Positions 3,776 to 53,728 of a DNA stretch of 64,000 nucleotides are shown here, one piece after another. The stretch is from Candidatus Blackburnbacteria bacterium RIFCSPLOWO2_01_FULL_40_20 (GTDB lineage Bacteria; Patescibacteriota; Microgenomatia; UBA8517; UBA10165), in contig MHCC01000001.1 in the NCBI GenBank assembly GCA_001816475.1, forward strand, positions 12,622 through 76,621, in the 5' to 3' direction. Made by a program: the position numbers and the translations under genes. A model generated the notes under the pieces. The model was not told the DNA's origin. It saw nothing but the letters and a program-made list of their open reading frames with translations, and searched no databases. How positions within the stretch are numbered: the stretch's first letter is position 1; each line of letters opens with the position of its first letter.

Positions 3776-3950
3776 CAACACTCAAAATGTAACTGGGAAC
3801 ATTGTGATTCCGTTAGATTAGCGAGAAACGGTTTTCGTAGATCTCGGGGTGATGATTTTCCCCACATCCAAATAAATTGAATCTGGAGTTTCCAACATCT
3901 CCTTAGAAAGGAGGTGATCCATCCGCACCTTCCAGTACGGATACCTTGTT

Positions 3951-4737
3951 CATGTTCTTCCCCTATTACTAAGGGCATGGACTATATCTTCATCCGCAGA
4001 AAAATGACCTTTTCCGGATGACTGGATCCTATTGTTTTTGCAAAGTCCAAATAAGATTTTGCTCTAACAAAAAATCTCCAATAATTCGGGTCTGCTTTTT
4101 TGCTCGGATTATGCACCACTCCACAGCTTATACCCAACTTTTCTAAATAGTTTCTTACCTGAACTAGATCCTCAAATTTCTTTTGAGCAAAGTACAAGTA
4201 ATAACGAACAGTTGGACTTCTTGAAATACCACCCTCTGTGTCAAAGTAGCCTCTTGTGTAATCAACCTTATCTTGCCTTGTTTTAACTTGAATTCCTTTA
4301 AGAAGTTTCTTGGAAAATTCCACAATCCAAAGATTGCGGTTTTTCCCTTCTTTGTAAATCCAAGCTTTAGATCCAAGACTGAGAATACCTTTTGCAAGAT
4401 ATTCGCAATAAGATCGACTTTTAGAAGCCACTCGATAAGTGGTTTTTCTTTCTGTGGAATCATGCAACGCTCCAAGTAAGTAAGCTTTAGTCATCTTGCG
4501 GCGTCAACGTGTAGTCTCTACGGGGTCAAGCCCTTCGATCCGCCTTTTGGCGGACTCAGGACCGACTTCCCTCGGTATTTTCCCTTTTGTGTAATACCTC
4601 TACTAGGTTGAATTTTAGCTCAACCAACTCAAGTAAGCAAAGCTTGCTTTATGCTTCGCTTCACTACGCAAAAGTAGGAGTTCACCGATACAGTTGAATT
4701 TATCTACACCATTACTAGTGTAGGTCGCAACAGATTC
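3951..4737 (-). other. 16S intron 2 (group I-like), inserted between AAGUCGU and AACAAGGUA (E. coli ~1498/1499)
   Basis: The upstream exon ends in U (CATCAAGTCGT). The intron ends in G (..ACATG) directly before AACAAGGTATCCG. It contains a LAGLIDADG ORF. Confidence 0.6.
3982..4494 (-). CDS. LAGLIDADG homing endonuclease (intron-encoded)
   Basis: Motifs LLGALHDS and GYFDTEGG (LAGLIDADG-type dodecapeptides) in a 170-aa ORF lying wholly inside the 16S intron. Confidence 0.8.
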   Translation of the reverse strand: MTKAYLLGALHDSTERKTTYRVASKSRSYCEYLAKGILSLGSKAWIYKEGKNRNLWIVEFSKKLLKGIQVKTRQDKVDYTRGYFDTEGGISRSPTVRYYLYFAQKKFEDLVQVRNYLEKLGISCGVVHNPSKKADPNYWRFFVRAKSYLDFAKTIGSSHPEKVIFLRMKI

Positions 4738-4809
4738 ACGACTTGATGCTAGTTGCTGAACTTACCTTTGGGTCGCCGAGGGCGACACTTCAGGTACTTC
4801 CAACTCCTC

Positions 4810-5316
4810 TCATCTGACGGGCGGATTGCGATCCAATAAGGTTTTGGTCGCGTTCCCACCCGGCGAGCGGATTTCCCGCACCGGGCGAGACCCAAGATTC
4901 ATCCTAGACTTCAATTGTAGAACGAGCTTCAATCCCCTCTTGTTGTTGTGCCTTTTATCTCTAACCAAAAGTGCGATCTTGCGAAAAATTTTATAATTTT
5001 CAACTTTTACACTTTGGAGATGATGAGCGTCAAAAAAGGGTATTAAAACTTTACGTATGTCCTCCTGAGAGTTAATCTCGTATCGATAACATTGGCTGTG
5101 ATTTCGACGCTTTTCCTTTTGGTGGTATACTGCGCCACATCCAAAGAATTCCTCAACTTTCTTGAGCAAAGACAGTTCATCTTCCCTCATTTTTATATAA
5201 AAGTGAGTCATCACACCATGTTTTGAACGAGAATAACGTTTATCAGGAGGTCGGATGCCAACATAAAAACATCCTTCTCCATCCGTTAATCCTACAATGT
5301 AGTCTGGTGAAAGCAT
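4810..5316 (-). CDS. LAGLIDADG homing endonuclease (intron-encoded; reading frame runs 15 nt into the downstream exon)
   Basis: N-terminal IVGLTDGEGCFYV is a classic LAGLIDADG motif. The ORF's last five codons (NPPVR) are read from the 16S exon CCGCCCGTCAGATGA. Confidence 0.85.
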   Translation of the reverse strand: MLSPDYIVGLTDGEGCFYVGIRPPDKRYSRSKHGVMTHFYIKMREDELSLLKKVEEFFGCGAVYHQKEKRRNHSQCYRYEINSQEDIRKVLIPFFDAHHLQSVKVENYKIFRKIALLVRDKRHNNKRGLKLVLQLKSRMNLGSRPVREIRSPGGNATKTLLDRNPPVR

Positions 5317-5692
5317 AGGTAACTCCCTTTATCACCGCTGCGTCAATAATTCCAGTATATTTCACCGAAATAAAATAATCAACAGCAGTAACTAATATGG
5401 AGTAGCTGACTTCTCTTAAGGCCTTAACCTTCATCCTTAAGAGATCTCCCTAGGTCACTATCGCTTCTGTTCCAAGCATCCAAGTTATGCCACTTCCCCA
5501 AAACACACCGCTTGGGTCGATTTGGCACCCCGATATCGATCGGAGCTTGGCTGCTTTTTGCCTCAGGCCCTCCAGCTGGTATCTCACGATAACCCAGCCT
5601 GCCAATTCTTTTTGGCTACTCCTCCTCATGTTTAGAGGAGGGAGTGGATTTAAACCACTTAGGAACAATAGCTGCTAGGCGCGCTTTAATTT
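4825..5692 (-). other. 16S intron 1, inserted between TTGTACACA and CCGCCCGTCA (E. coli ~1398/1399)
   Basis: Universally conserved 16S sequence resumes exactly on either side of the insertion. Intron type not established: the boundaries do not show the canonical U / omega-G pattern in my reading. Confidence 0.55.
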
Positions 5693-6161
5693 TGTGTACA
5701 AAGAGCGAGAACGTATTCACCGCGGTATAGCTGACCCGCGATTACTACCAATTCCGCGTTCATGCAGGCGAATTTCAGCCTGCAATCCCCACTGAGACGC
5801 CTTTTGATGAGATTAGCTCCGCCTCGCGGCTTGGCAACTCATTGTAGGCGCCATTGTAGCATGTTTGTAGCCCCAGACATAAGGGCCATGCTGACTTGAC
5901 GTCGTCCCCTCCTTCCTGTCCGATAAAATCGGACCTGTCCCGTATGAATATTTAACATACAGCAGGGGTTGCGCTCGTTACCTCACTTAAGAGAACACCC
6001 CACGGCACGAGCTGACGACAGCCATGCAACACCTGTCCTAACGCTCCGGTTTGCACCGGAGGGCTCTGACTTTCATCGGAGTTTCATTAGGATGTCAAGC
6101 CTGGGTAAGGTTCTTCGGTTCGTGTCGAATTAAACAACATGCTCCACTGGTTGTGCGCTCT

Positions 6162-6210
<49 letters not shown>

Positions 6211-6254
6211 CTCGCTTAACGCGTTAGCTTGCGGAACAGATCTCGCAAAAAATA

Positions 6255-6440
6255 CAACGTATTTTTTGCTCAAAACCCAAAATACGAAATCCTAAATTCG
6301 AAACAATATCTAAATTCTAAATTCAAATAATTAAACGTTTTGAATTTTAGGATTTTTAGATTTTGAATTTGTTTCGTGCTTCGATATTCGTGCTTTGAAT
6401 TTCTCGCAAAGAATGTATTCTTTGCGAGACCTATCCCAAG
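6255..6440 (-). repeat. AT-rich ~185-nt expansion segment inside the 16S (E. coli ~840 region)
   Basis: Inserted between GTAAACTATG... and GCTAACGCGTTAAGC. Self-complementary halves (AAATCCTAAAATTCAAAACG ... CGAATTTAGGATTT) predict a long hairpin. Built from AAATTCAAAAT-like units similar to the intergenic GAAAATT iterons. Confidence 0.5.
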
Positions 6441-7560
6441 CGAGCATAGTTTACGGCTAGGACTACAGGGGTCTCTAATCCCTTTCGCTACCCTAGCTTT
6501 CGTCTCTCAGCGTCAGAATCTTTCTAGATGTTCGCCTTCGCCGTCGGTGTTCCTCGTAATATCAACGGATTTAACCCCTACACTACGAGTTCCAACATCC
6601 CCGAAAGATCTCAAAGTTCACCCGTATTCTCCGATATCCCAGAGTTAAGCTCTGGACTTTAACAGAAAACGTGGCGGACCGCCTACAGACTCTTTACGCC
6701 CAATAAATCCGGACAACGCTTGCACCCTCCGTATTACCGAGGCTTCTGGCACGGAGTTAGCAGGTGCTTATTCTACAACCTGTATGATTGTCAAAAGGAG
6801 TTTAAGACCCGAAGGCCTTCTTCCTCCACGCGGCGTCGCGGGATCAGACTTGCGTCCATTGTCCACGATTCCCAGTTGCTGCCACCCGTAGGTGTATGAG
6901 CCGTGTCTCAGTCTCATTCTGGGGGGCCGTGCTCTAACACCCCCTACCCGTTATAGCCTTGGTAGGCCGTTACCCCACCAACTAGCTGATAGGCCGCCGG
7001 CTCTTTCTTCGGTGGACCGTTAAGTCCTTTGCTCTTGCGAGATTATGCGGTATTACCCCCGCTTTCGCGGGGCTATCCCCCACCAAAGAGTAGATTCCGA
7101 CGTGTTACTCAGCCGTCTGCCGCTATCCCGACTTGCGTCGGAATCGCTCGACTTGCATGCTTAAAGCGCGCCGCTAGCGTTCGTCCTGGGCCAGGATCAA
7201 ACCCTCAAAAAAAATTGACATGATCAACTCCGATTTACATCGGAGCAACCATGGGTTCCCAGTTACATTTTGAATGTCAAAGAGCAAATTGCAACGCAAT
7301 TTACGATGCACCCACCGATAAATCTTGGCACGAGGCGTGTACGAATAGTACCCGCAAGCCGAGTGCGAAGATAAGGCGGGAAGGTACGCATGGTCTCTTT
7401 AAACCAAAAATCCACCACATGGCGGATTAAACAAGCTTTTTAGGCTTACTGGCTTACTCTTTTCCCATGTGTTTGAAAAGTATACTCGATTCCCTATCAA
7501 TAGTCAACCATCCGTTTAGTGTAAACACATATTTGCAAATACATATATAATAGTGTTGAA

Positions 7561-12569: not shown

Positions 12570-12833
12570 CTATTTGTATACGCCTTGCCTGTGGCCAATT
12601 TCCACAATTATTACTGCATGGCTAGTGTTTATGACTACATAAATGATGCTGTATGGCCAAGCCCGAAGTTTGTACTGACCCTCAAATTCTCCTCTTAATC
12701 TTTCACCCGCAAGAGGGTTCTTGGATAATTTTTCAACCGCTCTTGATATTTTTTCTTTGTCTGAAGGTTTGAGTTTTGAAAATGATTTCTCGGCTTGCTT
12801 GGTAAAAATAATCTTAGCCACTTTACATTCCAA
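12570..12833 (-). CDS. RelE/ParE-family toxin
   Basis: 87 aa with C-terminal ...LRAWPYSIIYVV...IVEIGHRQ pattern, preceded by an overlapping antitoxin gene. Confidence 0.65.
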   Translation of the reverse strand: MECKVAKIIFTKQAEKSFSKLKPSDKEKISRAVEKLSKNPLAGERLRGEFEGQYKLRAWPYSIIYVVINTSHAVIIVEIGHRQGVYK

Positions 12834-36985: not shown

Positions 36986-39900
36986 ATGTCCAAAAGGGTA
37001 TTAGCCCTTGTTTTTTTGTTTTTGGCCTTTTTAGCTCTTTTTATTACCCCTTCAGAATCCAAAGCTGCAAGAAGTTCTTATTATGATTACGGACCTTATT
37101 ATGACCAAACCAAAGTATTAGGAATTTCGTTTTCTGCGCTCGAAAATTTGCCTGTACCGACTATTCCCGAGAATCTTGTTCCACAACAGGCTACCGGCAT
37201 TATGCCAGGTAATCCACTTTATTTTTTTGAGCAAGTAGCCGAAAACCTCCAAATAGCCTTCACATCCAATCCCCAAGCACGAGAAGAGCTTAGGTTAAAT
37301 TTTGCCGATGAAAGGCTTTCTGAAGCTAAAACATTGCTCGAACAAGGAAATACACAAGGAGCTCAAACAGCAATGGAGCACTATAAAGATAGTATGACGG
37401 GCGTTGCGCAAGGTCTTTTTGAATTGATCAACAACAACGACCCTGCCGCACAAAGTTTAACCGAGAAAGTTGAAGATGCAGCCAGTACACACACAATTGT
37501 TGCCCAAAATCTAAGTTTAAGCTCATCCCCCGTCCAAGCAGAAATCTGGACATACGCAGCGCAAGCTGGCAAGTCGGCTCTTGATCAAATCGCCGATGCT
37601 CAAAATGTACCTGCCATGCCAGAGGGACTATCAGTGAGCATTCAAAACTTGCGAAAACAGGGTATTTTGTCGGAAGAAGAAAGCAATAAGCTTTACAGCC
37701 TTGATAGCCGAAGCCAGCTTCGAGAAGAGCTGGACAAACTTACATCCTCCGGTATGTTTCCTCCGGGCGAGCTTGCAAAACTTGATGAAACTATTGCCAA
37801 TCGCTATCCGGAAATTCACAGACAACAAACAGCAAACCTTGAAGTGATGGAGTTAAGAACTTACCAAACGCTCCCTCAACCATCTGAGGAAATATTGGAA
37901 AAAATCTCAAATTGGCAAAAAGATCCGGGCACCCCCCCATCAAGCGACATAAGACAATATTTGTGGTATGATCGCGCTCAGGATTTAGCTGGCAAAGTAG
38001 ATTTATCAAATTATTCTACAGACCAACAAGAAGATCTGGTTCGTTCCTGGCAAACAGCAAAAGAGAATCCAACATATTCACCTGCTCCATCTCCTACACC
38101 AACATCATCTCCTACACCAACATCATCTCCTACACCAACATCATCTCCTACACCAGCACCATCTCCATCACCCGAACCGTCAACACCGGACGAAACTCCA
38201 CCTTCTCCTGAGCCCTCATCCCAACCATCGCCCAGTCCAATACCCTATATAGATAGTACAAACGTCACCCTGCCAGGTACCACCCAGTATTTTTTCAATA
38301 ATTTGGGAGAGCAAATATCGTATACATTCACATTTGATGCTGTTGAGCGCTCCAAACAAAAAATGAATCAGGCCGAACGCCGTTTGGCTGAGGCAAAAGC
38401 ACTCGCTGGCGATCCAACAAAAGAATCTCTTTACCTATCCACTTTAAAACAATACCAGCAAGCGATGACTGACGCGTCTGCGCTTCTTAAAGACACTGAT
38501 GGGCAATTTGCCAGTCGAGATGCAGCTGAAAGACTTGAGGCTCAAGCTGCGCGGCACGGCGTTGCACTTGAAAAAGGATACTTGCCAACTCCCGCTGCCG
38601 ACACACAAATTATCGGCGAAGCAATCCAGGCTGTTGAAACCGCCATGGACAGAAGCGCTGATGCTCTTGGCCGCCCCGCACTACCTCCAACGCTTGCCAA
38701 CCGTTTGGACGATCTTAAGGCCCAGGGGTTAATCCTGCCTGAAGAGGCAGAAAAGATTGTCAACTCTGCCTCACGTGAGGAAGCCCGCGACAAGATAAGA
38801 GAACTTGTTGAGATTGGGACCTTCCCTCTGGCTGATGCTAAAAAAATGGACGAGGCTCAAATATTAACCTCACCAACAGAATACAATCAATTAGTTGAAA
38901 TAAGGAAAGTTGAAGAATTTCAAAGATTAAGAGCCGCTCAATCTGAATTTGCCCAAACCCAAACACTAAGAAACACAGCGTCAGTCTTAAGCCAGCAAGA
39001 GGCAGCGCTATTTAATAGTATTGACCCATCCTTGTTAAAACCTGAAGATTTTGGAGGAAGAGAAGATTTAGTCAAGGCATACGAAACACTTATTGCAACC
39101 GCTCGTCCAATTAATAGCGGCCAATTCGGACCAGACATCACGCCAGGTGCAACACCATCTCCTTCTCCTTCCACAACCCCGACGCGACAAGACGCGGTTT
39201 TGACAACTTGTCCGGCTGGCGCTATTTTCAAACAGTTTGAAGGTTGTGTTTGGGAAGACAACGGTAAAGCTATTAACGATTATGAACAATACAAATGCGA
39301 ATCAAGACAATATTACTCCTTCGCAGCCAGAACGTGCGTATCTTACGAACCAGGTACAGGATTTAAAGATGACGCGCAACCTATCTGTCCTATTGGCTAC
39401 GCATGGGAATGGCAAAATCAAAGTTGTCAAAAGGGAACAGGCGGAATTATTTTACCCACGCCCATTCCCCAACCGGAGCCAATTGACAAAGAGGAAGAAG
39501 AAAAAAGGTCCAAATCCTGTCCTCAGGGCGCAACATATAAAGCCCCTGATGGATGTGTATGGGACGAGACAGACAGGCCGATTTACGACTCAAGACAATA
39601 CCGCTGTAGTGCAAGTGGTCAATATTATTCCTTCGAACAACTTAAGTGTGTGCCTGCGCCCAGCGAAGGAGAAGTGTATCCGAAGGATTCTGCCCCATCT
39701 TGTAAAGAAGAGGGGTCTTATTGGAGTTGGTCTGATGGAAAATGTATATCTTTGGCAGCACCTGACGAATCTGTCGAAAAAGGAGGCCAAGCAACCAACA
39801 TTGGCGACCCTCGTCCATACCTTGTTCCCCCCGACAGTCCGTTTTATTTCGTAAAGCAATTTGGTGAAACTATACAAACTGCTACTGCGTTTACACCCGA

Positions 39901-42367
39901 GGCGCGAGAACAAGTTAGGATATCGCAGGCCGATGAAAGACTCACCGAGGGCTATTATTCACTAAAGCACGGCAATACAAAAGATTTTGAAAAATCACTT
40001 TCTACCTATACAACTACAATGCAGAATGTTTTTAATGACTTGGCTGCGTCGGAATATTCTCCCCAAGTAAAACAGGCAATTGCAGAAAGATTAGGAAAAG
40101 AAGCTCCGGAACAAAACCTGCTTTTGCAAAAAGCTGAAGCATTGGCAGAAGATGAACAGGCAACAGCTATCTCAGCTGCAGTCTCGTCGACAATCTTGGC
40201 CTCAGATAAGGCAGCCGATCTGGCAGGCAAACCGCCAATCCCCGATGAAATTAAAACCAAGATCGAAAACTTACCTGAAACGGTACTCAGTCAAGAAGAT
40301 AAAAATAAACTTTTAGAAATCGATTCAAGGGTTGATGCCAGACTCAAACTAGGCGGACTTGCATCAACCGGTATATTAAGTACCCAGGACACATCTTTCC
40401 TGAATGAAGATTTTGAATCAGTCGATAAAGACGCCAAGATCAAAGTTGATGAACTTAAAAAATTAGAGCAAATTGCCAAAATTACGGAACAAAAGAACGA
40501 AGTTGTAGAAAAAGCTCAAAAGAATGAAAACATTGTAAATAAACTTACAGAATTTCAAAATACGTTCGAGCCGGGCCAGGAAGTCCCTGCTGAAATACGT
40601 CCATATGTGCGCCTTACACGAATTGAAGAGATCGGTCAAACAATAAGGCCTGATGTTGTTCGCGTGGAAGATTTCCAAAACCGGAAAGATGTTGTTTTGG
40701 CTGTTGCAGCGCTGCAGGATGAGTTCAGACCGACAAAAGAATCAATAAAGCAAGTTGCGGACTTTCGACGAAGAAATCCTGATAAATCCCTTCCGCCGGA
40801 GCTTGCAAGAATTGAGGCGCTCTCTTACGGCTTAGGTACAAGAGAACAAGCAGGTCAATGCTTCCTGCCTCCTCCATTCCCTGCAAATACCCCGTGTCCT
40901 GCTCCCGGGTCAACTGTTGCTGTAGCATCTTATTGGGGAGGTCAATGGTCAAGTCCTGCAGCTCCCGTTCAACCTGTTGCGTCCACAGACAAAGACGGCA
41001 AGCCTCTTGTTTACGGACAAGGTCCGCAGGCTGTAAGCTCTGGTTCCTGTCCGAGTGGTTATCATTGGATGTATGACTCAGGCGGCTGGTGTATGGCCAA
41101 CAGTGGTAGCTACGGCTATTCTTCCAATTATAATTCACCTTCTTCCACCTACACGACCGCCTCTTATCCTATCGGGACCGCAACCAGCGAAACACCTCCT
41201 GCGGAAGGTTACAATTGTGGCAGCCAACCTTACGACCCGGCCACCAAAAAATGTAAGGATGGAGCCTGTCCTGGAGGGTTTGAGTGGGATGGATCAAAAT
41301 GCGTAGCAAGAGGTTATTCTGGGCCAACATATCAAAGCAGCCCTTACTACTCACCCAACCTAACCCAATCCAGTTGTGGTCCCGGATATTATTGGGACGG
41401 CAAGGGTTGTATACCCAATTATAGTGGCGGTGGAAGTTATCCAGGTACCTCAAATTATTATTCTGGGGCTGCTGTCAACTGCGGTAGTGGATATTGGTGG
41501 AACGGCAACAGTTGTCAACCCTCATCCGGGCCAGGATCGTCGTGTAGTTATCCCTCCGGAGGATGCCCAGGCAACGGAGCGTGGTATGATTATTCCAGCT
41601 GCAGTTGTAAAACAACCAGCTATCCCTCTGGCTATTCCGGTCCAACAATCCAAAGCAGCCCCTATTACTCACCCAGTTCGTACGAACGTGGTTGTGCACC
41701 AGGCAACTACTGGGACGGCCGCAAGTGTGTGGCAGGAAGCTATGAAGGTCCTGGTTGGTCAGACACTACAGCCAGAGGCTGTACGCAGCAAAGCTGTGGT
41801 AGCAACCAGTGGTTTGACTGGGGAACTTGTTCCTGCAGACCCAATGGAAACACTTACACTCCTCCAACTTACAGTGGCGGTGGTGGCGGGACATCTAGTG
41901 GATCCTGCCCCTCAGGATCTCATTGGATGTCAGATAATGGTGGATACTGCATGTCAGATGCAGACAGATCGTCCTCATCGGGAGGATCCTCAAGTGGATC
42001 TTCTGGTGGATCACCTTCAGGGTCTTGTCCCTCAGGATCCCACTGGATGTCAGATAATGGTGGATACTGTATGTCAGACGGAGGTAGCTCGTCATCGGGT
42101 GGATCTTACACCCCACCTTCAACATCGACTTCCGGAAGTACCGGTTCTTATACCGCGCCTACTGAACCAGCTCCAGCTGCTCCAGCTCCTGCACCCGCTC
42201 CACCTCCAAGTGAGCCTGCACCAGCGCCACCTCCAAGTGAACCAGCTCCAGCTGCTCCAGCTCCTGCACCAGTTAGCGAACCAGCTCCTGCACCAGTCCA
42301 AGGAGCAAGCACTGAGAAAAATATACTGCAATTTATATTAGATATCCTCTTGGGTAAACTACGATAA
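36986..42367 (+). CDS. giant secreted protein (1793 aa) with three DUF5667-like repeats, Cys-rich C-terminal repeats and a Pro/Ala-rich tail
   Basis: Signal peptide MSKRVLALVFLFLAFLALFITPSESKA. Three repeats of P(G/D)xP(L/F)YFF/V...ADERL(S/T)E at ~aa 75, 440 and 950. PTPTSSPTPTSS linker. Repeated CPSG(Y/S)HWM(Y/S)D(S/N)GG(W/Y)CM units. Tail EPAPAAPAPAPAPPPSEPAPAPPPSEPAPAAPAPAPVSEPAPAPV and a terminal hydrophobic stretch. Confidence 0.8.
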   Translation: MSKRVLALVFLFLAFLALFITPSESKAARSSYYDYGPYYDQTKVLGISFSALENLPVPTIPENLVPQQATGIMPGNPLYFFEQVAENLQIAFTSNPQAREELRLNFADERLSEAKTLLEQGNTQGAQTAMEHYKDSMTGVAQGLFELINNNDPAAQSLTEKVEDAASTHTIVAQNLSLSSSPVQAEIWTYAAQAGKSALDQIADAQNVPAMPEGLSVSIQNLRKQGILSEEESNKLYSLDSRSQLREELDKLTSSGMFPPGELAKLDETIANRYPEIHRQQTANLEVMELRTYQTLPQPSEEILEKISNWQKDPGTPPSSDIRQYLWYDRAQDLAGKVDLSNYSTDQQEDLVRSWQTAKENPTYSPAPSPTPTSSPTPTSSPTPTSSPTPAPSPSPEPSTPDETPPSPEPSSQPSPSPIPYIDSTNVTLPGTTQYFFNNLGEQISYTFTFDAVERSKQKMNQAERRLAEAKALAGDPTKESLYLSTLKQYQQAMTDASALLKDTDGQFASRDAAERLEAQAARHGVALEKGYLPTPAADTQIIGEAIQAVETAMDRSADALGRPALPPTLANRLDDLKAQGLILPEEAEKIVNSASREEARDKIRELVEIGTFPLADAKKMDEAQILTSPTEYNQLVEIRKVEEFQRLRAAQSEFAQTQTLRNTASVLSQQEAALFNSIDPSLLKPEDFGGREDLVKAYETLIATARPINSGQFGPDITPGATPSPSPSTTPTRQDAVLTTCPAGAIFKQFEGCVWEDNGKAINDYEQYKCESRQYYSFAARTCVSYEPGTGFKDDAQPICPIGYAWEWQNQSCQKGTGGIILPTPIPQPEPIDKEEEEKRSKSCPQGATYKAPDGCVWDETDRPIYDSRQYRCSASGQYYSFEQLKCVPAPSEGEVYPKDSAPSCKEEGSYWSWSDGKCISLAAPDESVEKGGQATNIGDPRPYLVPPDSPFYFVKQFGETIQTATAFTPEAREQVRISQADERLTEGYYSLKHGNTKDFEKSLSTYTTTMQNVFNDLAASEYSPQVKQAIAERLGKEAPEQNLLLQKAEALAEDEQATAISAAVSSTILASDKAADLAGKPPIPDEIKTKIENLPETVLSQEDKNKLLEIDSRVDARLKLGGLASTGILSTQDTSFLNEDFESVDKDAKIKVDELKKLEQIAKITEQKNEVVEKAQKNENIVNKLTEFQNTFEPGQEVPAEIRPYVRLTRIEEIGQTIRPDVVRVEDFQNRKDVVLAVAALQDEFRPTKESIKQVADFRRRNPDKSLPPELARIEALSYGLGTREQAGQCFLPPPFPANTPCPAPGSTVAVASYWGGQWSSPAAPVQPVASTDKDGKPLVYGQGPQAVSSGSCPSGYHWMYDSGGWCMANSGSYGYSSNYNSPSSTYTTASYPIGTATSETPPAEGYNCGSQPYDPATKKCKDGACPGGFEWDGSKCVARGYSGPTYQSSPYYSPNLTQSSCGPGYYWDGKGCIPNYSGGGSYPGTSNYYSGAAVNCGSGYWWNGNSCQPSSGPGSSCSYPSGGCPGNGAWYDYSSCSCKTTSYPSGYSGPTIQSSPYYSPSSYERGCAPGNYWDGRKCVAGSYEGPGWSDTTARGCTQQSCGSNQWFDWGTCSCRPNGNTYTPPTYSGGGGGTSSGSCPSGSHWMSDNGGYCMSDADRSSSSGGSSSGSSGGSPSGSCPSGSHWMSDNGGYCMSDGGSSSSGGSYTPPSTSTSGSTGSYTAPTEPAPAAPAPAPAPPPSEPAPAPPPSEPAPAAPAPAPVSEPAPAPVQGASTEKNILQFILDILLGKLR

Positions 42368-44416: not shown

Positions 44417-44495
44417 AACAAGATTACCACATCAGTCTAAGCGAATATAGATTTTTGACCTCCCAAATGATAAAATTGATCCTGTTCTTTAATAT

Positions 44496-44846
44496 TCCCC
44501 GGTAGCTCAGTGGTAGAGCGGAGAGCTGTGTTAGCAGCCTTCGAAGGAAACTTCGGAGTGAAAAGTGGGTGAATTCAGGGAACGGTCCGACTTTGTTGGA
44601 TTAATCCTGAGCCAATCCTCCATTAATAGTTAGGCATGTTTGCCGAATCTTTTAATGAAGGCAGGTGCAGAGACTAGGTGATTACACCAATTAGCGCCCA
44701 CCACCCCACCCTACGCCCAGTATTAAAAATACAGGGCTTCGGAGCGGCAAGTAAAAACTTGTCCTTCCGCAGCTTAGGCGGAGAAGGGTGATGAGATAGT
44801 CCAAAAAGTAACTCTAAGGTCGTAGGTCCGAATCCTACCCGGGGAG
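44496..44846 (+). tRNA. tRNA-Asn(GTT) interrupted by a group I intron (5' exon 44496-44529, 3' exon 44809-44846)
   Basis: Exons: TCCCCGGTAGCTCAGTGGTAGAGCGGAGAGCTGT | TAACTCTAAGGTCGTAGGTCCGAATCCTACCCGGGGAG. Acceptor TCCCCGG/CCGGGGA, anticodon stem GAGAG/CTCTA, loop CTGTTAA, discriminator G. The intervening 279 nt starts after U, ends in G, and carries GGATTAATCCTGAGCCAATCC, matching the conserved element of trnL(UAA)-type group I introns. Confidence 0.65.
44530..44808 (+). other. group I intron in the tRNA anticodon loop (between positions 35 and 36)
   Basis: See tRNA entry. Also contains AATTCAGGGAA, similar to the chloroplast/cyanobacterial trnL intron AATTCAGAGAAAC. Confidence 0.6.
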
Positions 44847-44851
44847 CACGA

Positions 44852-44886
44852 AAAATTAGGCCTCATTTTTGAGGCTTTATTTTTTA
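44852..44886 (+). terminator. rho-independent terminator after the tRNA (AGGCCTCA-TTTTT-GAGGCTTT + T-run)
   Basis: GC hairpin followed by TTTATTTTTT. Confidence 0.5.
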
Positions 44887-44939: not shown

Positions 44940-45005
44940 TCGGGTTTGTCCTGAGCATGTCGAAGAACGAAGCGAGTCGAACGAGAATCCTACCCGGGGA
45001 GCCGA
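44940..45005 (+). repeat. ~65-nt repeat unit ending in a copy of the tRNA-Asn 3' end (GAATCCTACCCGGGGAGC), copy 1
   Basis: GTCCTGAGCATGTCGAAGAACGAAGCGAGTCGAACGAGAATCCTACCCGGGGAGCC. The 17-nt tail is identical to tRNA positions 57-73. Confidence 0.6.
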
Positions 45006-45454: not shown

Positions 45455-45525
45455 GCCTCACAGTCGAAGACCTCAAAACCAAAGGCATGAGCGAAGCCGA
45501 AGGAAATCCTACCCGGGGAGCAAAT
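45455..45525 (+). repeat. ~65-nt repeat unit ending in the tRNA-Asn 3' end, copy 2
   Basis: GGTCTGAGCCTCACAGTCGAAGACC...GAGCGAAGCCGAAGGAAATCCTACCCGGGGAGCA. Shares the TCTGAGC...GTCGAAGA...GAGCGAAGC...AATCCTACCCGGGGAGC skeleton with copy 1. Confidence 0.6.
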
Positions 45526-50095: not shown

Positions 50096-51202
50096 CTATT
50101 GAACCCTAATAGGCATGATAAGGTGGAGATATGATTCGTCTGTTGAATCTTTAAAAACTCCCGAGGCTGTTGAGCCGTTTGTTGAAAACACAATTTCACT
50201 CCCCGTGGCACTATTTAAAAACTCAAGTAAATACTTATAATTGAAAGCAGTCTCCACTTCCCCACCTTCCACCTTTGCGTCCAGTGAGGCTTCTTGACAC
50301 CCAAAACTCGGGTTTTCCGTAAATACAGTTAATTTATCCTTCTCAATCTTGAGCCGAACAACACCTGACGATTCCCGGGCAATAACCGAGGTAATCTTAA
50401 CAGCCCGCACCAAATCGTCTTTTGAAAATCGGGCGGTGATTGTTGTGCTTTTAGGAATAATCCTTTTATAATCGGGAAAATCTCCTTCTATTAAGCGTCC
50501 TGTTAAGGTTGCAGTGGATGTTGTAAAAATTAACTGTTTCTCCCCGTCAAGAACTGAGACCCCTATTTCTTCTTCCGAGTTTGAAATCAACTTCGCAACT
50601 TCTTCGATCAGCCTTGCAGGCATCAAAACAGTTTGATCCATATCTATTTTTTTATTTTTTTGAATATCCTTGCAAGAAAGTCTAAACCCGTCTGTTGAAA
50701 CCGCACGCAAGCCATCTTGATTAATTGAAAATAAAACACCACTCAAAATCGGCCGAGAGTCGTCTCTCGACGCCGAAAACACAACTTGCTTATTAATGGT
50801 ATCTAAAATCTCCTTGTTGATTGTAAAATCGATCTTTTCTGCGGTTTCTGGAACCTCTGGAAATTCACTTGCTGAAATTCCACTAAGGTTGGCTGATGAA
50901 GAGTTGGAAGTAACCGTCAATTGCCCTTTGTCTGCTTTTAGCCTTACTTTACCTGCTGGCAAGTTAGACATGAGTTCGCTAATCACTTTTGAGGGTATTG
51001 TTATTGCGCCTTCTTCTTCTATTTTTGCTCCAAGTTTATATGAAATTCCCATCTCGAGGTTTGTTGCTGCAAGTCTAAGTGTGTTTTTATCAGCTACTAT
51101 TAATATGTTGGATAAAATTGGAAGTTGTACTCGTGTTGATACAAAACGAGAAACGCTCATTAACCCTTTTAGAATGTCTTCTTGAAGTACAACAACTTCC
51201 AT
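50096..51202 (-). CDS. dnaN: DNA polymerase III beta sliding clamp
   Basis: 368 aa, three-domain beta-clamp pattern (MEVVVLQEDILKGLMSVSRFVS...LPILSNILI...). Immediately downstream of dnaA. Confidence 0.9.
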   Translation of the reverse strand: MEVVVLQEDILKGLMSVSRFVSTRVQLPILSNILIVADKNTLRLAATNLEMGISYKLGAKIEEEGAITIPSKVISELMSNLPAGKVRLKADKGQLTVTSNSSSANLSGISASEFPEVPETAEKIDFTINKEILDTINKQVVFSASRDDSRPILSGVLFSINQDGLRAVSTDGFRLSCKDIQKNKKIDMDQTVLMPARLIEEVAKLISNSEEEIGVSVLDGEKQLIFTTSTATLTGRLIEGDFPDYKRIIPKSTTITARFSKDDLVRAVKITSVIARESSGVVRLKIEKDKLTVFTENPSFGCQEASLDAKVEGGEVETAFNYKYLLEFLNSATGSEIVFSTNGSTASGVFKDSTDESYLHLIMPIRVQ

Positions 51203-51421
51203 TAGAGTGAGTATACGTTCAAATTAAAAGCAGTGCAAGCTTTGTATTTTAAGGTGTGGAAATCTTCGTTTTCTTTTAATATTAATATATTGATGTTGTT
51301 GTAGAACTGGTGGATAAGTGTAAAACATGCTTAAAAAGGTAATTTTAATGTGGAAAACAAAGCTACTATTTTTCTTGATAATTTTGTTGATTAATTTGTA
51401 CACGTTGTGGAAAAGAAAATA
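51203..51421. promoter_or_regulatory. AT-rich DnaA-box cluster (oriC candidate) between dnaA and dnaN
   Basis: TGTGGAAAT (51255), CACTTATCCACC on the opposite strand (51309-51318), TGTGGAAAA (51349) and TGTGGAAAA (51405). All are TTWTCCACA-type boxes within 220 bp of >70% AT. Confidence 0.55.
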
Positions 51422-52816
51422 CTAGACGGAAAGTTGTCCAGAAACTGATTGTTTTATCCCCAAAAGATCTCGCTTTAGTGCGTTATCTGTTGATATTCTT
51501 GTTGATATCTTTCCTACTGCGTGCATAACCGTTGTGTGGTCTCGTCCGCCGATCAGTCTTCCAACTTCTTGTAGTGGTAGGCCAAATTCAATTCTTAATA
51601 AGTACATTAAAATTTGTCGAGGATAAGCAACTGGTCGGACTCGGGAGTCACTTAACAGTTTTCTTCGGCTTATTGAATAGTATTCTGCAACAGCATCAAT
51701 AACTGCCTGTGGTAAAATTGCTTTTGGGTTAAGATTGGTACTTTCCCTTTTAGGAGAAGTCTTGCCTAATATTTTTTCTGTTAATTCCATGGTAATTGGT
51801 TCATTTCTTCCTTTTGCTTCAGTCATCAATCTTGTCAAAAAACCTTCTATCCTCCTTGCGTTGTCAAAATTTGCTCCGATTGTTTGAGCAATTTCCATTG
51901 GTAGTTCAATACCTCTTTCTTGTGCTTTAATAAGAGTAATTGCTGATAGAAGTTCAAAATCAGGTGGAGAAATATCAATTATTAAACCCGCTTCAAATCT
52001 ACTTCTCAATCTATCCTCAAGTTTTTCAATCTCAGTCGGTGGTCTGTCGGACGTTAAAACAACTTGTCCACCTTCTCTTAGTAGTGCGTTAAACGAGTGG
52101 AAGAACTCTTCCTGCACTTTTTCCTTACCTGCGATAAACTGAACATCGTCCAAAAGTAGCAACTTTAGTTTTCTATACCTTTTTTTGAACTCGTCAGTGT
52201 TTTTGTTTTTAATAGCCTCAACTATTTCGGTTGTAAATTCTTCACCTGTGGAGTATAGAACCTGCAATGTCGGATCAACTAATAATAGTTTATGGGCGAT
52301 GGCCAACATCAAATGAGTCTTGCCTATACCCACTCCTCCCCACAAAAACAGTGGGTTGTATGCTTTACCTAAATCTTTTGAGACAGCCTCAGCTGCCGCC
52401 CAAGCCATTTGGTTTGAAGAGGAAACTGCGAAGTTTTCAAAAGTAAATCCTGGTCTGATCCTGTGCCTCTTAAGGACGTCGTTTATATTGCTTTGCTCTT
52501 CGAAAGATTGAGAAAACAATGAGTTTTCCTGAACCTGTTTTTTTTCTGTGGCAGGATTTTGTTTTACTGTAAAAGTGATATCGTTTTTGTAACCCGTTGT
52601 TCGGTTTAGTGAGTCAAGGATTAACCCAAAATATCTTTTCTCAATAGTGTCGGCAATAAAAGAAGAAGGACATCCTATTTCAATTAATTGTCTACCGTTG
52701 TCCAGCTCTCGTGTCGAGGTAATGAAGGTTTGGGAAAGCCAAGTTGAATAGTTACCAGAAGACACAGAGACTTTTAGTGTCGATAGTACTTCTTGCCAAA
52801 TTTTATTTTTGTCCAT
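51422..52816 (-). CDS. dnaA: chromosomal replication initiator protein DnaA
   Basis: AAA+ Walker A GGVGIGKTHL, box VII, and a C-terminal DNA-binding helix-turn-helix. Confidence 0.9.
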   Translation of the reverse strand: MDKNKIWQEVLSTLKVSVSSGNYSTWLSQTFITSTRELDNGRQLIEIGCPSSFIADTIEKRYFGLILDSLNRTTGYKNDITFTVKQNPATEKKQVQENSLFSQSFEEQSNINDVLKRHRIRPGFTFENFAVSSSNQMAWAAAEAVSKDLGKAYNPLFLWGGVGIGKTHLMLAIAHKLLLVDPTLQVLYSTGEEFTTEIVEAIKNKNTDEFKKRYRKLKLLLLDDVQFIAGKEKVQEEFFHSFNALLREGGQVVLTSDRPPTEIEKLEDRLRSRFEAGLIIDISPPDFELLSAITLIKAQERGIELPMEIAQTIGANFDNARRIEGFLTRLMTEAKGRNEPITMELTEKILGKTSPKRESTNLNPKAILPQAVIDAVAEYYSISRRKLLSDSRVRPVAYPRQILMYLLRIEFGLPLQEVGRLIGGRDHTTVMHAVGKISTRISTDNALKRDLLGIKQSVSGQLSV

Positions 52817-52996
52817 GAATGTGGCTAATCATAATGAGTTATCCACAATTGCGTCAACCCCGAAAAATGCCGAACGGTGAATTGTAAAGTTACTTGGTTA
52901 ATAAGCTACTGAGTTACTAAGATTGTGAAATACAAAATAATGATAGTTTGCAGAAAGCAGAAAAATTTAGTACACTTATACCAACAATTAACAACA
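52817..52996. promoter_or_regulatory. dnaA upstream region with consensus DnaA box TTATCCACA (52838-52846)
   Basis: Perfect nonamer in the rpmH-dnaA divergent intergenic region. Confidence 0.45.
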
Positions 52997-53134
52997 ATGC
53001 CAAAAAGAACTTACCAGCCAAGTAAAAGAAAAAGAGTTAGAAAATATGGGTTTATGGCCAGGAATGGTAGTGCATCCGGTCGTAAAGTTTTGAAACGAAG
53101 GATTGCCAAAGGTAGAGCCAAATTGACAATCTAA
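52997..53134 (+). CDS. rpmH: 50S ribosomal protein L34
   Basis: [45 protein letters not shown]. The listed ORF starts at an upstream in-frame Met that is unlikely to be used. Confidence 0.85.
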
Positions 53135-53135
53135 A

Positions 53136-53477
53136 TTGATGCTTCGTAAAGAAAACAGGTTAACCAAGAGAGTAGATTTCCAAAAAGTCTTAAAGCAAGG
53201 AAAAATGGTTCAAGGAAGACTGTTTAGTCTTTCTTTTTTGAAATCCCCAGAAGACTTTCAACCCAAGTTTGGGATTATTGTTTCAAACAAGATTTCCAAA
53301 AGGGCTGTTGCCAGAAACAGGATAAGGAGGCTACTTCGCGAAGCAATTAGAAAAAGTTTAGTGCGCGCGCCTCGCGGATCAATATTTGTGCTTTTAACGA
53401 AAAAGAGTGCACTGGAGGCAAAAAGCAACCAAGTTGAAGATGATTTAAAATATATGTTCAGTAAATGTGGAATATGA
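53136..53477 (+). CDS. rnpA: ribonuclease P protein component
   Basis: Basic 113-aa protein, ...[11 protein letters not shown]-like motif; canonical position after rpmH. Confidence 0.8.
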
Positions 53478-53728
53478 GAAAAACTTTTGCAAATCTAATA
53501 AAAATTTACCAAAACTTTTTTTCTTTTGACCGAGGCTTGGGATTCTTTTTACCGTTTGGATCAGGAAGAACAAACTCTGGAAGTGTTTGCCGATTTTACC
53601 CCACTTGCTCAGAATACACAAAGCAATCTGTTGGAAAATATGGAATAATTGTAGGATCTGTTAAAGGATTACTAAGAATCTTAAGGTGTAATCCATTGTT
53701 TATTGGAGGATTTGACCCAGTAAAATAA
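53465..53728 (+). CDS. yidD: membrane protein insertion efficiency factor YidD
   Basis: [10 protein letters not shown]...GGFDPV signature. Confidence 0.8.

Follow-up and report, generated by a model that had tools for sequence, protein, structure and literature searches.

The window analysed here, a stretch of 64,000 nucleotides (positions 12,622 to 76,621 of contig MHCC01000001.1, assembly GCA_001816475.1) from Candidatus Blackburnbacteria bacterium RIFCSPLOWO2_01_FULL_40_20, very probably contains a tRNA-Asn(GUU) gene of Microgenomatia-type Patescibacteria (Candidate Phyla Radiation, CPR) that is split at U35/U36 by a 279-nt group I ribozyme devoid of an open reading frame (ORF). The intron carries no P9 hairpin, and the evidence tips slightly towards a natural lineage of tRNA-Asn introns, the shortest bacterial tRNA group I introns found (173-174 nt) among its members, that dispenses with both P9 and P9.0 and apparently sets its 3' splice site by a 4-bp P10 helix beside P1. 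Introns of this class were listed in 2020 and their splicing was shown in 2026; what is new is the P9-less sub-lineage, always with a strong P10. Positions below are those of the window, and loci used for comparison are cited by L numbers.

An intron between anticodon positions 35 and 36

Joining the 34-nt 5' exon TCCCCGGTAGCTCAGTGGTAGAGCGGAGAGCTGT to the 38-nt 3' exon TAACTCTAAGGTCGTAGGTCCGAATCCTACCCGGGGAG (Table 1) yields a 72-nt tRNA-Asn(GUU) with the loop CUGUUAA, a U1-A72 pair and the discriminator G73, the last two of which suit bacterial tRNA-Asn; CCA is not encoded at the 3' end. The intervening 279 nt (44530-44808; intron position i equals window position 44529 + i) are preceded by U, begin with GTTAGCAGCC and end with GTCCAAAAAG, the terminal base being G. 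The predicted ligated junction reads ...GAGAGCUGU|UAACUCUA..., also given as GAGAGCUGUUAACUCUAAGG and GAGAGCTGTTAACTCTAAGG. ARAGORN called the joined exons tRNA-Asn(gtt) and, in intron mode on the unaltered genomic sequence, reported tRNA-Asn at 44496-44847 with i(35,279), whereas without the intron option it returned nothing at this locus from the whole window.

The intron lies between U35 and U36. When neighbouring junctions were enumerated, 44529|44809 alone combined a U at position -1, a terminal G, a 7-nt loop and both P1 and P10, and the internal guide GUUAGCAGC (GUUA-GCAGC) forms one uninterrupted run of pairs with the ligated junction GCUGU|UAAC. Junctions shifted by a few bases, which ARAGORN read as Thr, His, Tyr or Phe, were dropped, as they break the rule of U-1 and terminal G or the P1/P10 pairing; no other isoacceptor therefore fits all splice rules.

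The insert is a group I intron by its Rfam score, the U.G wobble in P1, the terminal guanosine (omega-G) and a P3-P8 core. The Rfam model Intron_gpI (RF00028) matched 44518-44824 with 62 bits against a gathering threshold of 50, with E-values of 2.6e-15 in a 651-nt scan and 2.6e-13 in a scan of the whole window under permissive filters; a default gathering-threshold scan of the 64-kb window missed the locus owing to speed filters. The default misses by ARAGORN and Rfam thus reflect options and filters and not absence of the gene. The locus and its flanks (801 nt) match three separate ENA metagenome assemblies (L150-L152) with 100% identity, and hence are not an artefact of one assembly. A previous sequence-only reading of this DNA had proposed the same group I intron at 35/36 of tRNA-Asn(GUU), with the same boundaries, insert length, flanking U, terminal G and exon assembly, and all of these match the sequence and the covariance-model and ARAGORN results; the strings GGAUUAAUCCUGAGCCAAUCC and AAUUCAGGGAA, which it had taken for conserved elements, were confirmed within the insert.

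Predicted structure of the intron

The minimum-energy fold of the intron alone recovered P2, P3, P4, P5, P6, P7.1 and P8. P7, which we take to be the guanosine-binding helix as established for group I introns, agrees with the Rfam consensus AGACUA / AUAGUC. The helix that the Rfam alignment places at the 3' end was rejected as spurious, since it falls in the exon. No ORF was found within the intron, which encodes no protein, and no P9 hairpin was found in it; the tail after the 3' strand of P7 comprises only 6 nt (AAAAAG). In this copy and its 18 P9-less relatives, an A/U linker of 5-6 nt is all that precedes the terminal G.

Two peripheral regions are extended in the window copy. Extensions of P6 of a similar kind occur in L142, L131 and L129, and a second hairpin stands beside P7.1 in L129, L121 and L132, but the ~75-nt insert in P8 is present in the window copy only. 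The register of P8 is ambiguous, as CACCC occurs twice (intron positions 173-177 and 178-182). No known RNA motif was found by Rfam inside the P8 insert, and neither this insert, nor the P6 extension, nor the spacer of the downstream repeats described below has other copies in the window or the fetched loci, so that nothing points to a mobile mini-element.

Conservation and covariation among P9-less relatives

To recover relatives, GTDB species genomes were scanned with the pattern GGGTGAATTCAG-N(15-45)-CTGAGCCAA, which was found in at least 119 species genomes from many phyla and in several host tRNAs; in at least 54 of these, joining by the rule U35|...G|U36 gave tRNA-Asn(GUU) in ARAGORN. 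Among the matches listed, 54 tRNA-Asn introns could be compared for the tail that follows the P7 3' strand, which is 28-31 nt long and holds P9 in 50 and is 6-7 nt long in four; L091, cut at a contig end, is a fifth P9-less case from the GTDB species genomes. A scan of metagenomes with the narrow pattern GATGAGATAGTCCA-N(3,4)-AGTAA returned 30 stretches; 19 hold P9-less tRNA-Asn introns, either complete or truncated by a contig end, and the others are coding sequences that match by chance. The counts from both scans are lower bounds. Including the window, at least 19 distinct P9-less pre-tRNAs were obtained, whose introns measure 173-279 nt; that of the window is the longest, and those of L091 and L134 are the shortest (173-174 nt).

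The 19 distinct P9-less pre-tRNAs were aligned and assessed for covariation against 500 shuffles and against slid helices. Standard pairs filled 99.2% of cells, and compensatory changes were seen in 20 of 65 pairs; for four of five measures, the observed value was not attained in any of the 500 shuffles, and the slid controls paired in 38-45%. Within the intron, the compensatory changes fall in all eight pairs of P2 and in one pair each of P3, P4 and P7.1 (the last being GAUG/CAUC in L057), and within the tRNA in the acceptor stem (3/7), the anticodon stem (3/3) and the T stem (3/5). The covariation of the tRNA stems indicates that every lineage has kept the exons as a working tRNA and, therefore, that the intron must be removed.

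Pairing was complete (100% of cells) for all seven pairs of P3, for P7.1, for the four proximal pairs of P8 and for the six invariant pairs of P7, and reached 97% in P4. P1 is near-invariant, with one pair changed to A.C in 3/19 and the U.G wobble kept in 19/19, and the P10 pairs are all standard, one of them being G-U in 3/19. The GAAA tetraloop of L2 is present in 19/19, omega-G is invariant, and so are the catalytic core strings, including GAUGAGAUAGUCC, which covers the J8/7 and P7 3' strand region; the window copy retains all invariant core positions.

P10 possibly in place of P9

A perfect 4-bp P10 adjoining P1 is present in 19/19 P9-less introns versus 3/50 P9-bearing introns among the matches listed. 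Two of these three (L038, L046) belong to the same clade as the P9-less introns, and most P9-bearing introns have 0-2 pairs at this position. Two loci, L141 (237-492, no P9) and L038 (1735-2011, P9), share the same tRNA exon sequences, and their introns are almost the same apart from a clean 21-nt indel that corresponds exactly to the P9 hairpin; thus, P9 was recently lost or gained without loss of the gene. In introns without P9, the invariant 4-bp P10 most likely defines the 3' splice site jointly with the anticodon-stem pairs that persist between the exons. Zaug, McEvoy and Cech reportedly observed in 1993 that anticodon-stem pairs between the exons hold these together in the Anabaena pre-tRNA-Leu.

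Engineered group I ribozymes without P9, the sunY mini-ribozymes, are reportedly still active, and an engineered minimal group I ribozyme lacking peripheral or P9 elements is said to have retained activity (Ikawa, Shiraishi and Inoue, 2000), which places P9 outside the indispensable catalytic core. These are laboratory truncations, whereas in the lineage of the window intron the absence of P9 is natural and conserved. Nothing relevant on natural P9-less group I introns was found in the literature searched, which is not proof of novelty, and a P9-less tRNA-Asn sub-lineage with a 4-bp P10 is not described in the published papers on Asn introns (PMC13011429; 10.1101/2020.01.27.920355).

Proposed splicing pathway and its alternatives

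The gene would be transcribed from its own promoter to the terminator-like hairpin downstream (Table 1), and the intron folds as P1-P2-P3-P4-P5-P6-P7-P7.1-P8, as the computed fold, the covariance model and covariation show. Following the two-step guanosine chemistry that is standard for group I introns, a free guanosine held in P7 would cut after U35; G44808 would then occupy the P7 pocket, U35 would attack the 3' splice site, and the exons would be joined to form the loop CUGUUAA. A sister tRNA-Asn intron, from GCA_016700035.1, self-splices in vitro precisely at 35/36 and loses this activity when its terminal G is mutated to C, and self-splicing in vitro was also obtained for the tRNA-Asp intron of GCA_001029755.1 (PMC13011429). 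The window copy is most likely a functional self-splicing intron as well. Without splicing, a functional tRNA-Asn would probably not be made, as tRNA genes that carry such introns mostly have no second copy in the genome (PMC13011429).

Several points weigh against this reading. Splicing is a prediction for the window copy as for every P9-less member, and P1 and P7 are invariant, so that they are backed by conservation and the covariance model and not by covariation. P9 and P9.0 normally help to place the terminal G and provide a tertiary contact; their absence could lower activity or impose dependence on a cofactor. The proximal P8 of the window copy is without the CCUAA/UAUGG receptor-like motif common in its relatives (CACCTAA in 14/19 and TATGGTG in 10/19 of the P9-less set), and the ~75-nt insert is unique. 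The T-loop reads UCCGAAU, with C55 at position 44828. U55 is near-universal among tRNAs, and U occupies this position in the other 18 of the 19 P9-less set members (UUCGAAU) and in the four other complete tRNAs of the window; the base is identical in the three independent assemblies, and C55 is thus real in the population. A second, intron-less tRNA-Asn gene may also lie in the genome beyond the visible 64 kb.

The missing P9 and P9.0 would also suit a real intron that is not autonomous and needs a protein, or the folded tRNA body, to splice, and many natural group I introns do need protein cofactors in vivo. This has only a small chance of being correct: the intron has no ORF, the L2 GAAA is kept in 19/19, P10 is strong, engineered ribozymes lacking P9 keep their activity, and the genomes of Patescibacteria are highly reduced.

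It is improbable that the locus is a decaying copy, i.e., a pseudogene or poorly functional gene marked by loss of P9 and by C55, with decoding left to another tRNA-Asn gene. C55 is unique in the set of 19, P9 is absent, the P8 insert is peculiar to this copy, the receptor-like motif is altered, two tRNA 3'-end fragments downstream suggest past rearrangement, and only 64 kb of the genome is visible, all of which would be expected of such a copy. The P9-less design, however, is shared by 19 distinct sequences whose intron and tRNA stems both show compensatory changes, the core positions are intact, the locus is identical in three assemblies, and the terminator and promoter-like elements are in place; moreover, a genome with an intron-bearing copy seldom has an intron-less one for the same anticodon (PMC13011429).

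Relationship to published introns

The self-splicing intron proposed here corresponds to type 'Asn.4Ug' of Williams (10.1101/2020.01.27.920355), a name given as quoted by Nakagawa et al. (PMC13011429). With the published members of this class it shares the host tRNA, the 35/36 site, U-1, the terminal G, P7.1 and the core strings GGGUGAAUU, AGGUKCAGAGACUA and GAUGAKAUAGUCC, and, like them, it is missed by standard annotation and by default Rfam filters. The closest published relative is the Microgenomatia tRNA-Asn intron of GCA_016700135.1, with two 19-mers and three 9-nt words shared; the validated tRNA-Asn intron of GCA_016700035.1 shares a 15-mer. Introns at 35/36 of tRNA-Asn(GUU) were reported in 15/95 complete Patescibacteria genomes, where standard tools miss or mis-call them, and 25/28 introns at 35/36 were assigned to subgroup IA; of the Patescibacteria tRNA introns as a whole, nearly all were placed in IA and none in IC (PMC13011429). 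That survey draws a P7.1 helix in the validated intron, gives 184 nt as the minimum length of a tRNA intron, which is above the 173-174 nt of the shortest relatives found here, leaves P10 and P9.0 unmentioned, and shows structures of P9-bearing introns alone (PMC13011429). The sequence-only reading had considered an Asn host with an insertion at 35/36 unusual, a view contradicted by these two publications and by the frequency of the class in uncultured bacteria (at least 54 GTDB species genomes); the known bacterial hosts that it lists (Leu, fMet, Arg, Ile) form the classical set, which Williams widened to 21 types (10.1101/2020.01.27.920355).

The window copy differs from the published class in its 4-bp P10, in its long P6 and P8 extensions and in coming from a genome outside the 95 surveyed. 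It has only AAAAA where the published tRNA-Asn introns with readable 3' ends have P9 in 15/15. P9 is frequent in the class but is not part of its published definition, and the window copy is a structural variant within the class. Its predicted P7.1, placed between P7 and P3', is a hallmark of subgroup IA.

The sequence-only reading had further described the intron as 'trnL-type'. The part of this claim that stands is the occurrence of two exact 13-mers, AAUCCUGAGCCAA and AGGUGCAGAGACU, in the tRNA-Leu(UAA) intron of Nostoc/Anabaena PCC 7120 (IC3, 249 nt), which, like the window intron, is an ORF-less anticodon-loop intron with a GNRA-loop P2 and a short P5 and is similar to it in P4, P6, J6/7 and P7. 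Unlike the window intron, however, the Nostoc intron has a Leu host, a 34/35 site, a P9 with a GNRA loop, a different J3/4 and J8/7, and no P7.1, its P7 running directly into P3'. As the shared motifs are generic in bacterial tRNA introns and the architecture differs, the resemblance is at the level of motifs only. That an IC3 intron of cyanobacterial or plastid ancestry moved into tRNA-Asn is, accordingly, very doubtful: the shared motifs are spread over at least 119 species of many phyla and in several host tRNAs, the published subgroup assignments cited above place no Patescibacteria tRNA intron in IC, and all 72 tRNA-Asn introns group on short branches far from Nostoc in a rough neighbour-joining tree that has no support values and was rooted on the Nostoc intron by choice, so that the outgroup position is imposed. 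Global pairwise identities to Leu-IC3 and Asn-IA references, 73-81% and inflated by gaps, gave no separation.

The tRNA-Ile(CAU) intron of Azoarcus, the textbook small self-splicing intron (IC3, 205 nt), keeps P9 and P9.0, has no P7.1, and docks its L2 GAAA tetraloop on P8. Both it and the window intron are bacterial tRNA anticodon-loop ribozymes with an L2 GAAA, and a similar docking on P8 may be supposed for the window clade; the relatives of the window intron, at 173-174 nt, are shorter than the Azoarcus intron, whereas the window copy itself is 279 nt long.

Splice sites two bases off (exon ends 44527 and 44807) would turn the gene into tRNA-Thr(agt) in ARAGORN, which also called Thr for L076, L090 and L091, but this is scarcely credible, because the intron would then end in A, neither the U.G wobble nor the continuous P1/P10 guide would survive, and G73 with U1-A72 is generally known to fit bacterial tRNA-Asn. 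The same mis-call by ARAGORN/tFind has been described, and the product of the sister intron, sequenced in vitro, confirms 35/36 (PMC13011429).

The same core pattern was seen in other tRNAs, with ARAGORN calling tRNA-Gln(CUG) in L003, L012, L019, L031, L032, L062, L079, L084, L102, L114-L116 and L118 (mainly Burkholderiales-labelled), tRNA-Tyr(GUA) in L061, L066, L099, L104 and L108 (Omnitrophota and one Planctomycetia-labelled), and tRNA-Leu(UAA) in L026, L098 and L119 (Myxococcota). These host assignments are those of ARAGORN only, which often misplaces such boundaries, and the taxonomy in some record titles of metagenome-assembled genomes (MAGs) is unreliable.

Default tRNA finders and a default Rfam scan both overlook the tRNA-Asn gene, so that tRNA-Asn would be recorded as missing from the genome, an error of annotation already documented in Patescibacteria (PMC13011429). 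The recently described class gains a member from an uncultured groundwater lineage and, occurring in at least 54 species genomes, extends far beyond the 28 cases from complete genomes. The P9-less sub-lineage would be of interest to ribozyme research as a naturally minimised form of group I intron and, if the P9-less lineage is real, the pair L038/L141 would provide a ready-made natural experiment on the contribution of P9.

Flanking signals and genomic neighbourhood

The features of the tRNA-Asn locus, together with those of the interrupted 16S rRNA gene described below, are collected in Table 1.

Table 1. Positions of predicted features in the 64-kb window.
Feature	Position	Strand	Description and basis
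Putative extended -10 element TGATAAAAT	44468-44476	+	19 nt upstream of tRNA position 1; read from sequence
5' exon	44496-44529	+	tRNA positions 1-35, ends in G34 U35; read from sequence, ARAGORN, stem covariation
P1 5' strand GCUGU	44525-44529	+	last 5 nt of 5' exon
Internal guide GUUA-GCAGC	44530-44538	+	complementarity to both exon ends
P10	44530-44533 / 44809-44812	+	GUUA / 3' exon UAAC; 4 bp
P1	44534-44538 / 44525-44529	+	GCAGC / exon GCUGU; U35.G wobble at splice site
P2 hairpin	44539-44558	+	8 bp, GAAA tetraloop (L2); fold, covariation
P3 5' strand GUGGGUG	44565-44571	+	pairs with 44695-44701; fold, Rfam alignment
J3/4, P4, J4/5, P5	44572-44610	+	J3/4 AAU, P4 UCAGGG/UCCUGA; fold, Rfam alignment
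P5	44584-44602	+	8 bp including G.U pairs, UUU loop; fold
P6 and P6a/b extension	44612-44665	+	P6 CC/GG; long extension with hairpin GGCA-UGUU-UGCC; fold
P7 5' strand	44670-44676	+	G-A(bulge)-GACUA; pairs with 44797-44802 (UAGUCC)
P7.1 hairpin	44677-44688	+	GGUG-AUUA-CACC, between P7 and P3'; fold, covariation
P3 3' strand CGCCCAC	44695-44701	+	fold, alignment counts
P8	44702-44790	+	proximal CACC(C)/(G)GGUG enclosing branched ~75-nt insert; fold
J8/7 and P7 3' strand	44791-44802	+	AUGAGA and UAGUCC; Rfam consensus match
Linker and omega-G	44803-44808	+	AAAAA (5 nt) and G (44808); read from sequence
3' exon	44809-44846	+	U36 to discriminator G73; ARAGORN
Intrinsic-terminator-like hairpin and T run	44858-44885	+	starts 12 nt past tRNA 3' end; terminator scan
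18-nt exact repeat of tRNA 3' end GAATCCTACCCGGGGAGC	44985-45002	+	repeat search
16S exon 1	7212-5693	-	
16S insertion A	5692-4825	-	868 nt; LAGLIDADG_1 ORF 5316-4810
16S exon 2	4824-4738	-	CCGCCCGTCA...CAAGTCGT
16S intron B	4737-3951	-	787 nt; LAGLIDADG_3 ORF 4494-3982
16S exon 3	3950 to about 3905	-	ends GGATCACCTCCTTTCT

The -10-like element is a putative promoter of the tRNA-Asn gene; TGnTAAAAT-like strings lie at an equal upstream distance in L046, L057, L074, L076, L090 and L091, and a consensus promoter scan made no call at the element. The last 18 nt of the tRNA-Asn gene occur in three copies on the same strand (44830-44847, 44985-45002 and, with one mismatch, 45504-45521), three matches against a chance expectation of 0.01, and the ~40 nt that precede the second and third copies are loosely alike. 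The repeats are possibly leftover att sites of elements integrated into the tRNA gene; no integrase gene was found near them.

A 16S rRNA gene (3905-7212, minus strand) is split into three exons, an arrangement hidden by the Rfam small-subunit rRNA (SSU) match at 7212-5643. Insertions with LAGLIDADG genes in 16S rRNA genes are a known CPR trait. Insertion A has no Rfam group I match, and its boundaries do not show U-1 and a terminal G; intron B has a U.G wobble in P1 (GUCGU/GCGAC), a terminal G and a weak Intron_gpI match (29.8 bits). A tRNA-Ile(GAU) gene (2526-2598) is encoded on the other strand than the 16S gene, and the 64-kb window holds no 23S rRNA gene; thus, the rRNA genes do not form a standard operon here.

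Two genes upstream of the tRNA, a 1793-aa ORF (36986-42367, plus strand) with a signal-like hydrophobic N-terminus, Pro/Ser/Thr-rich linkers and repeated Cys-rich modules probably encodes a giant surface protein. Also upstream, the product of a PMT_2-family gene is 52% identical to that of the gene at the same position in the Candidatus Blackburnbacteria MAG L046, whose tRNA-Asn locus is the best nucleotide match to that of the window. Together with the interrupted 16S rRNA gene, these similarities make a Microgenomatia-type member of Patescibacteria the most likely source. The gene table of L150, mapped onto the window, places a yidD-rnpA / dnaA-dnaN cluster at about 50100-53700, and the window therefore probably includes the region of the chromosomal replication origin.

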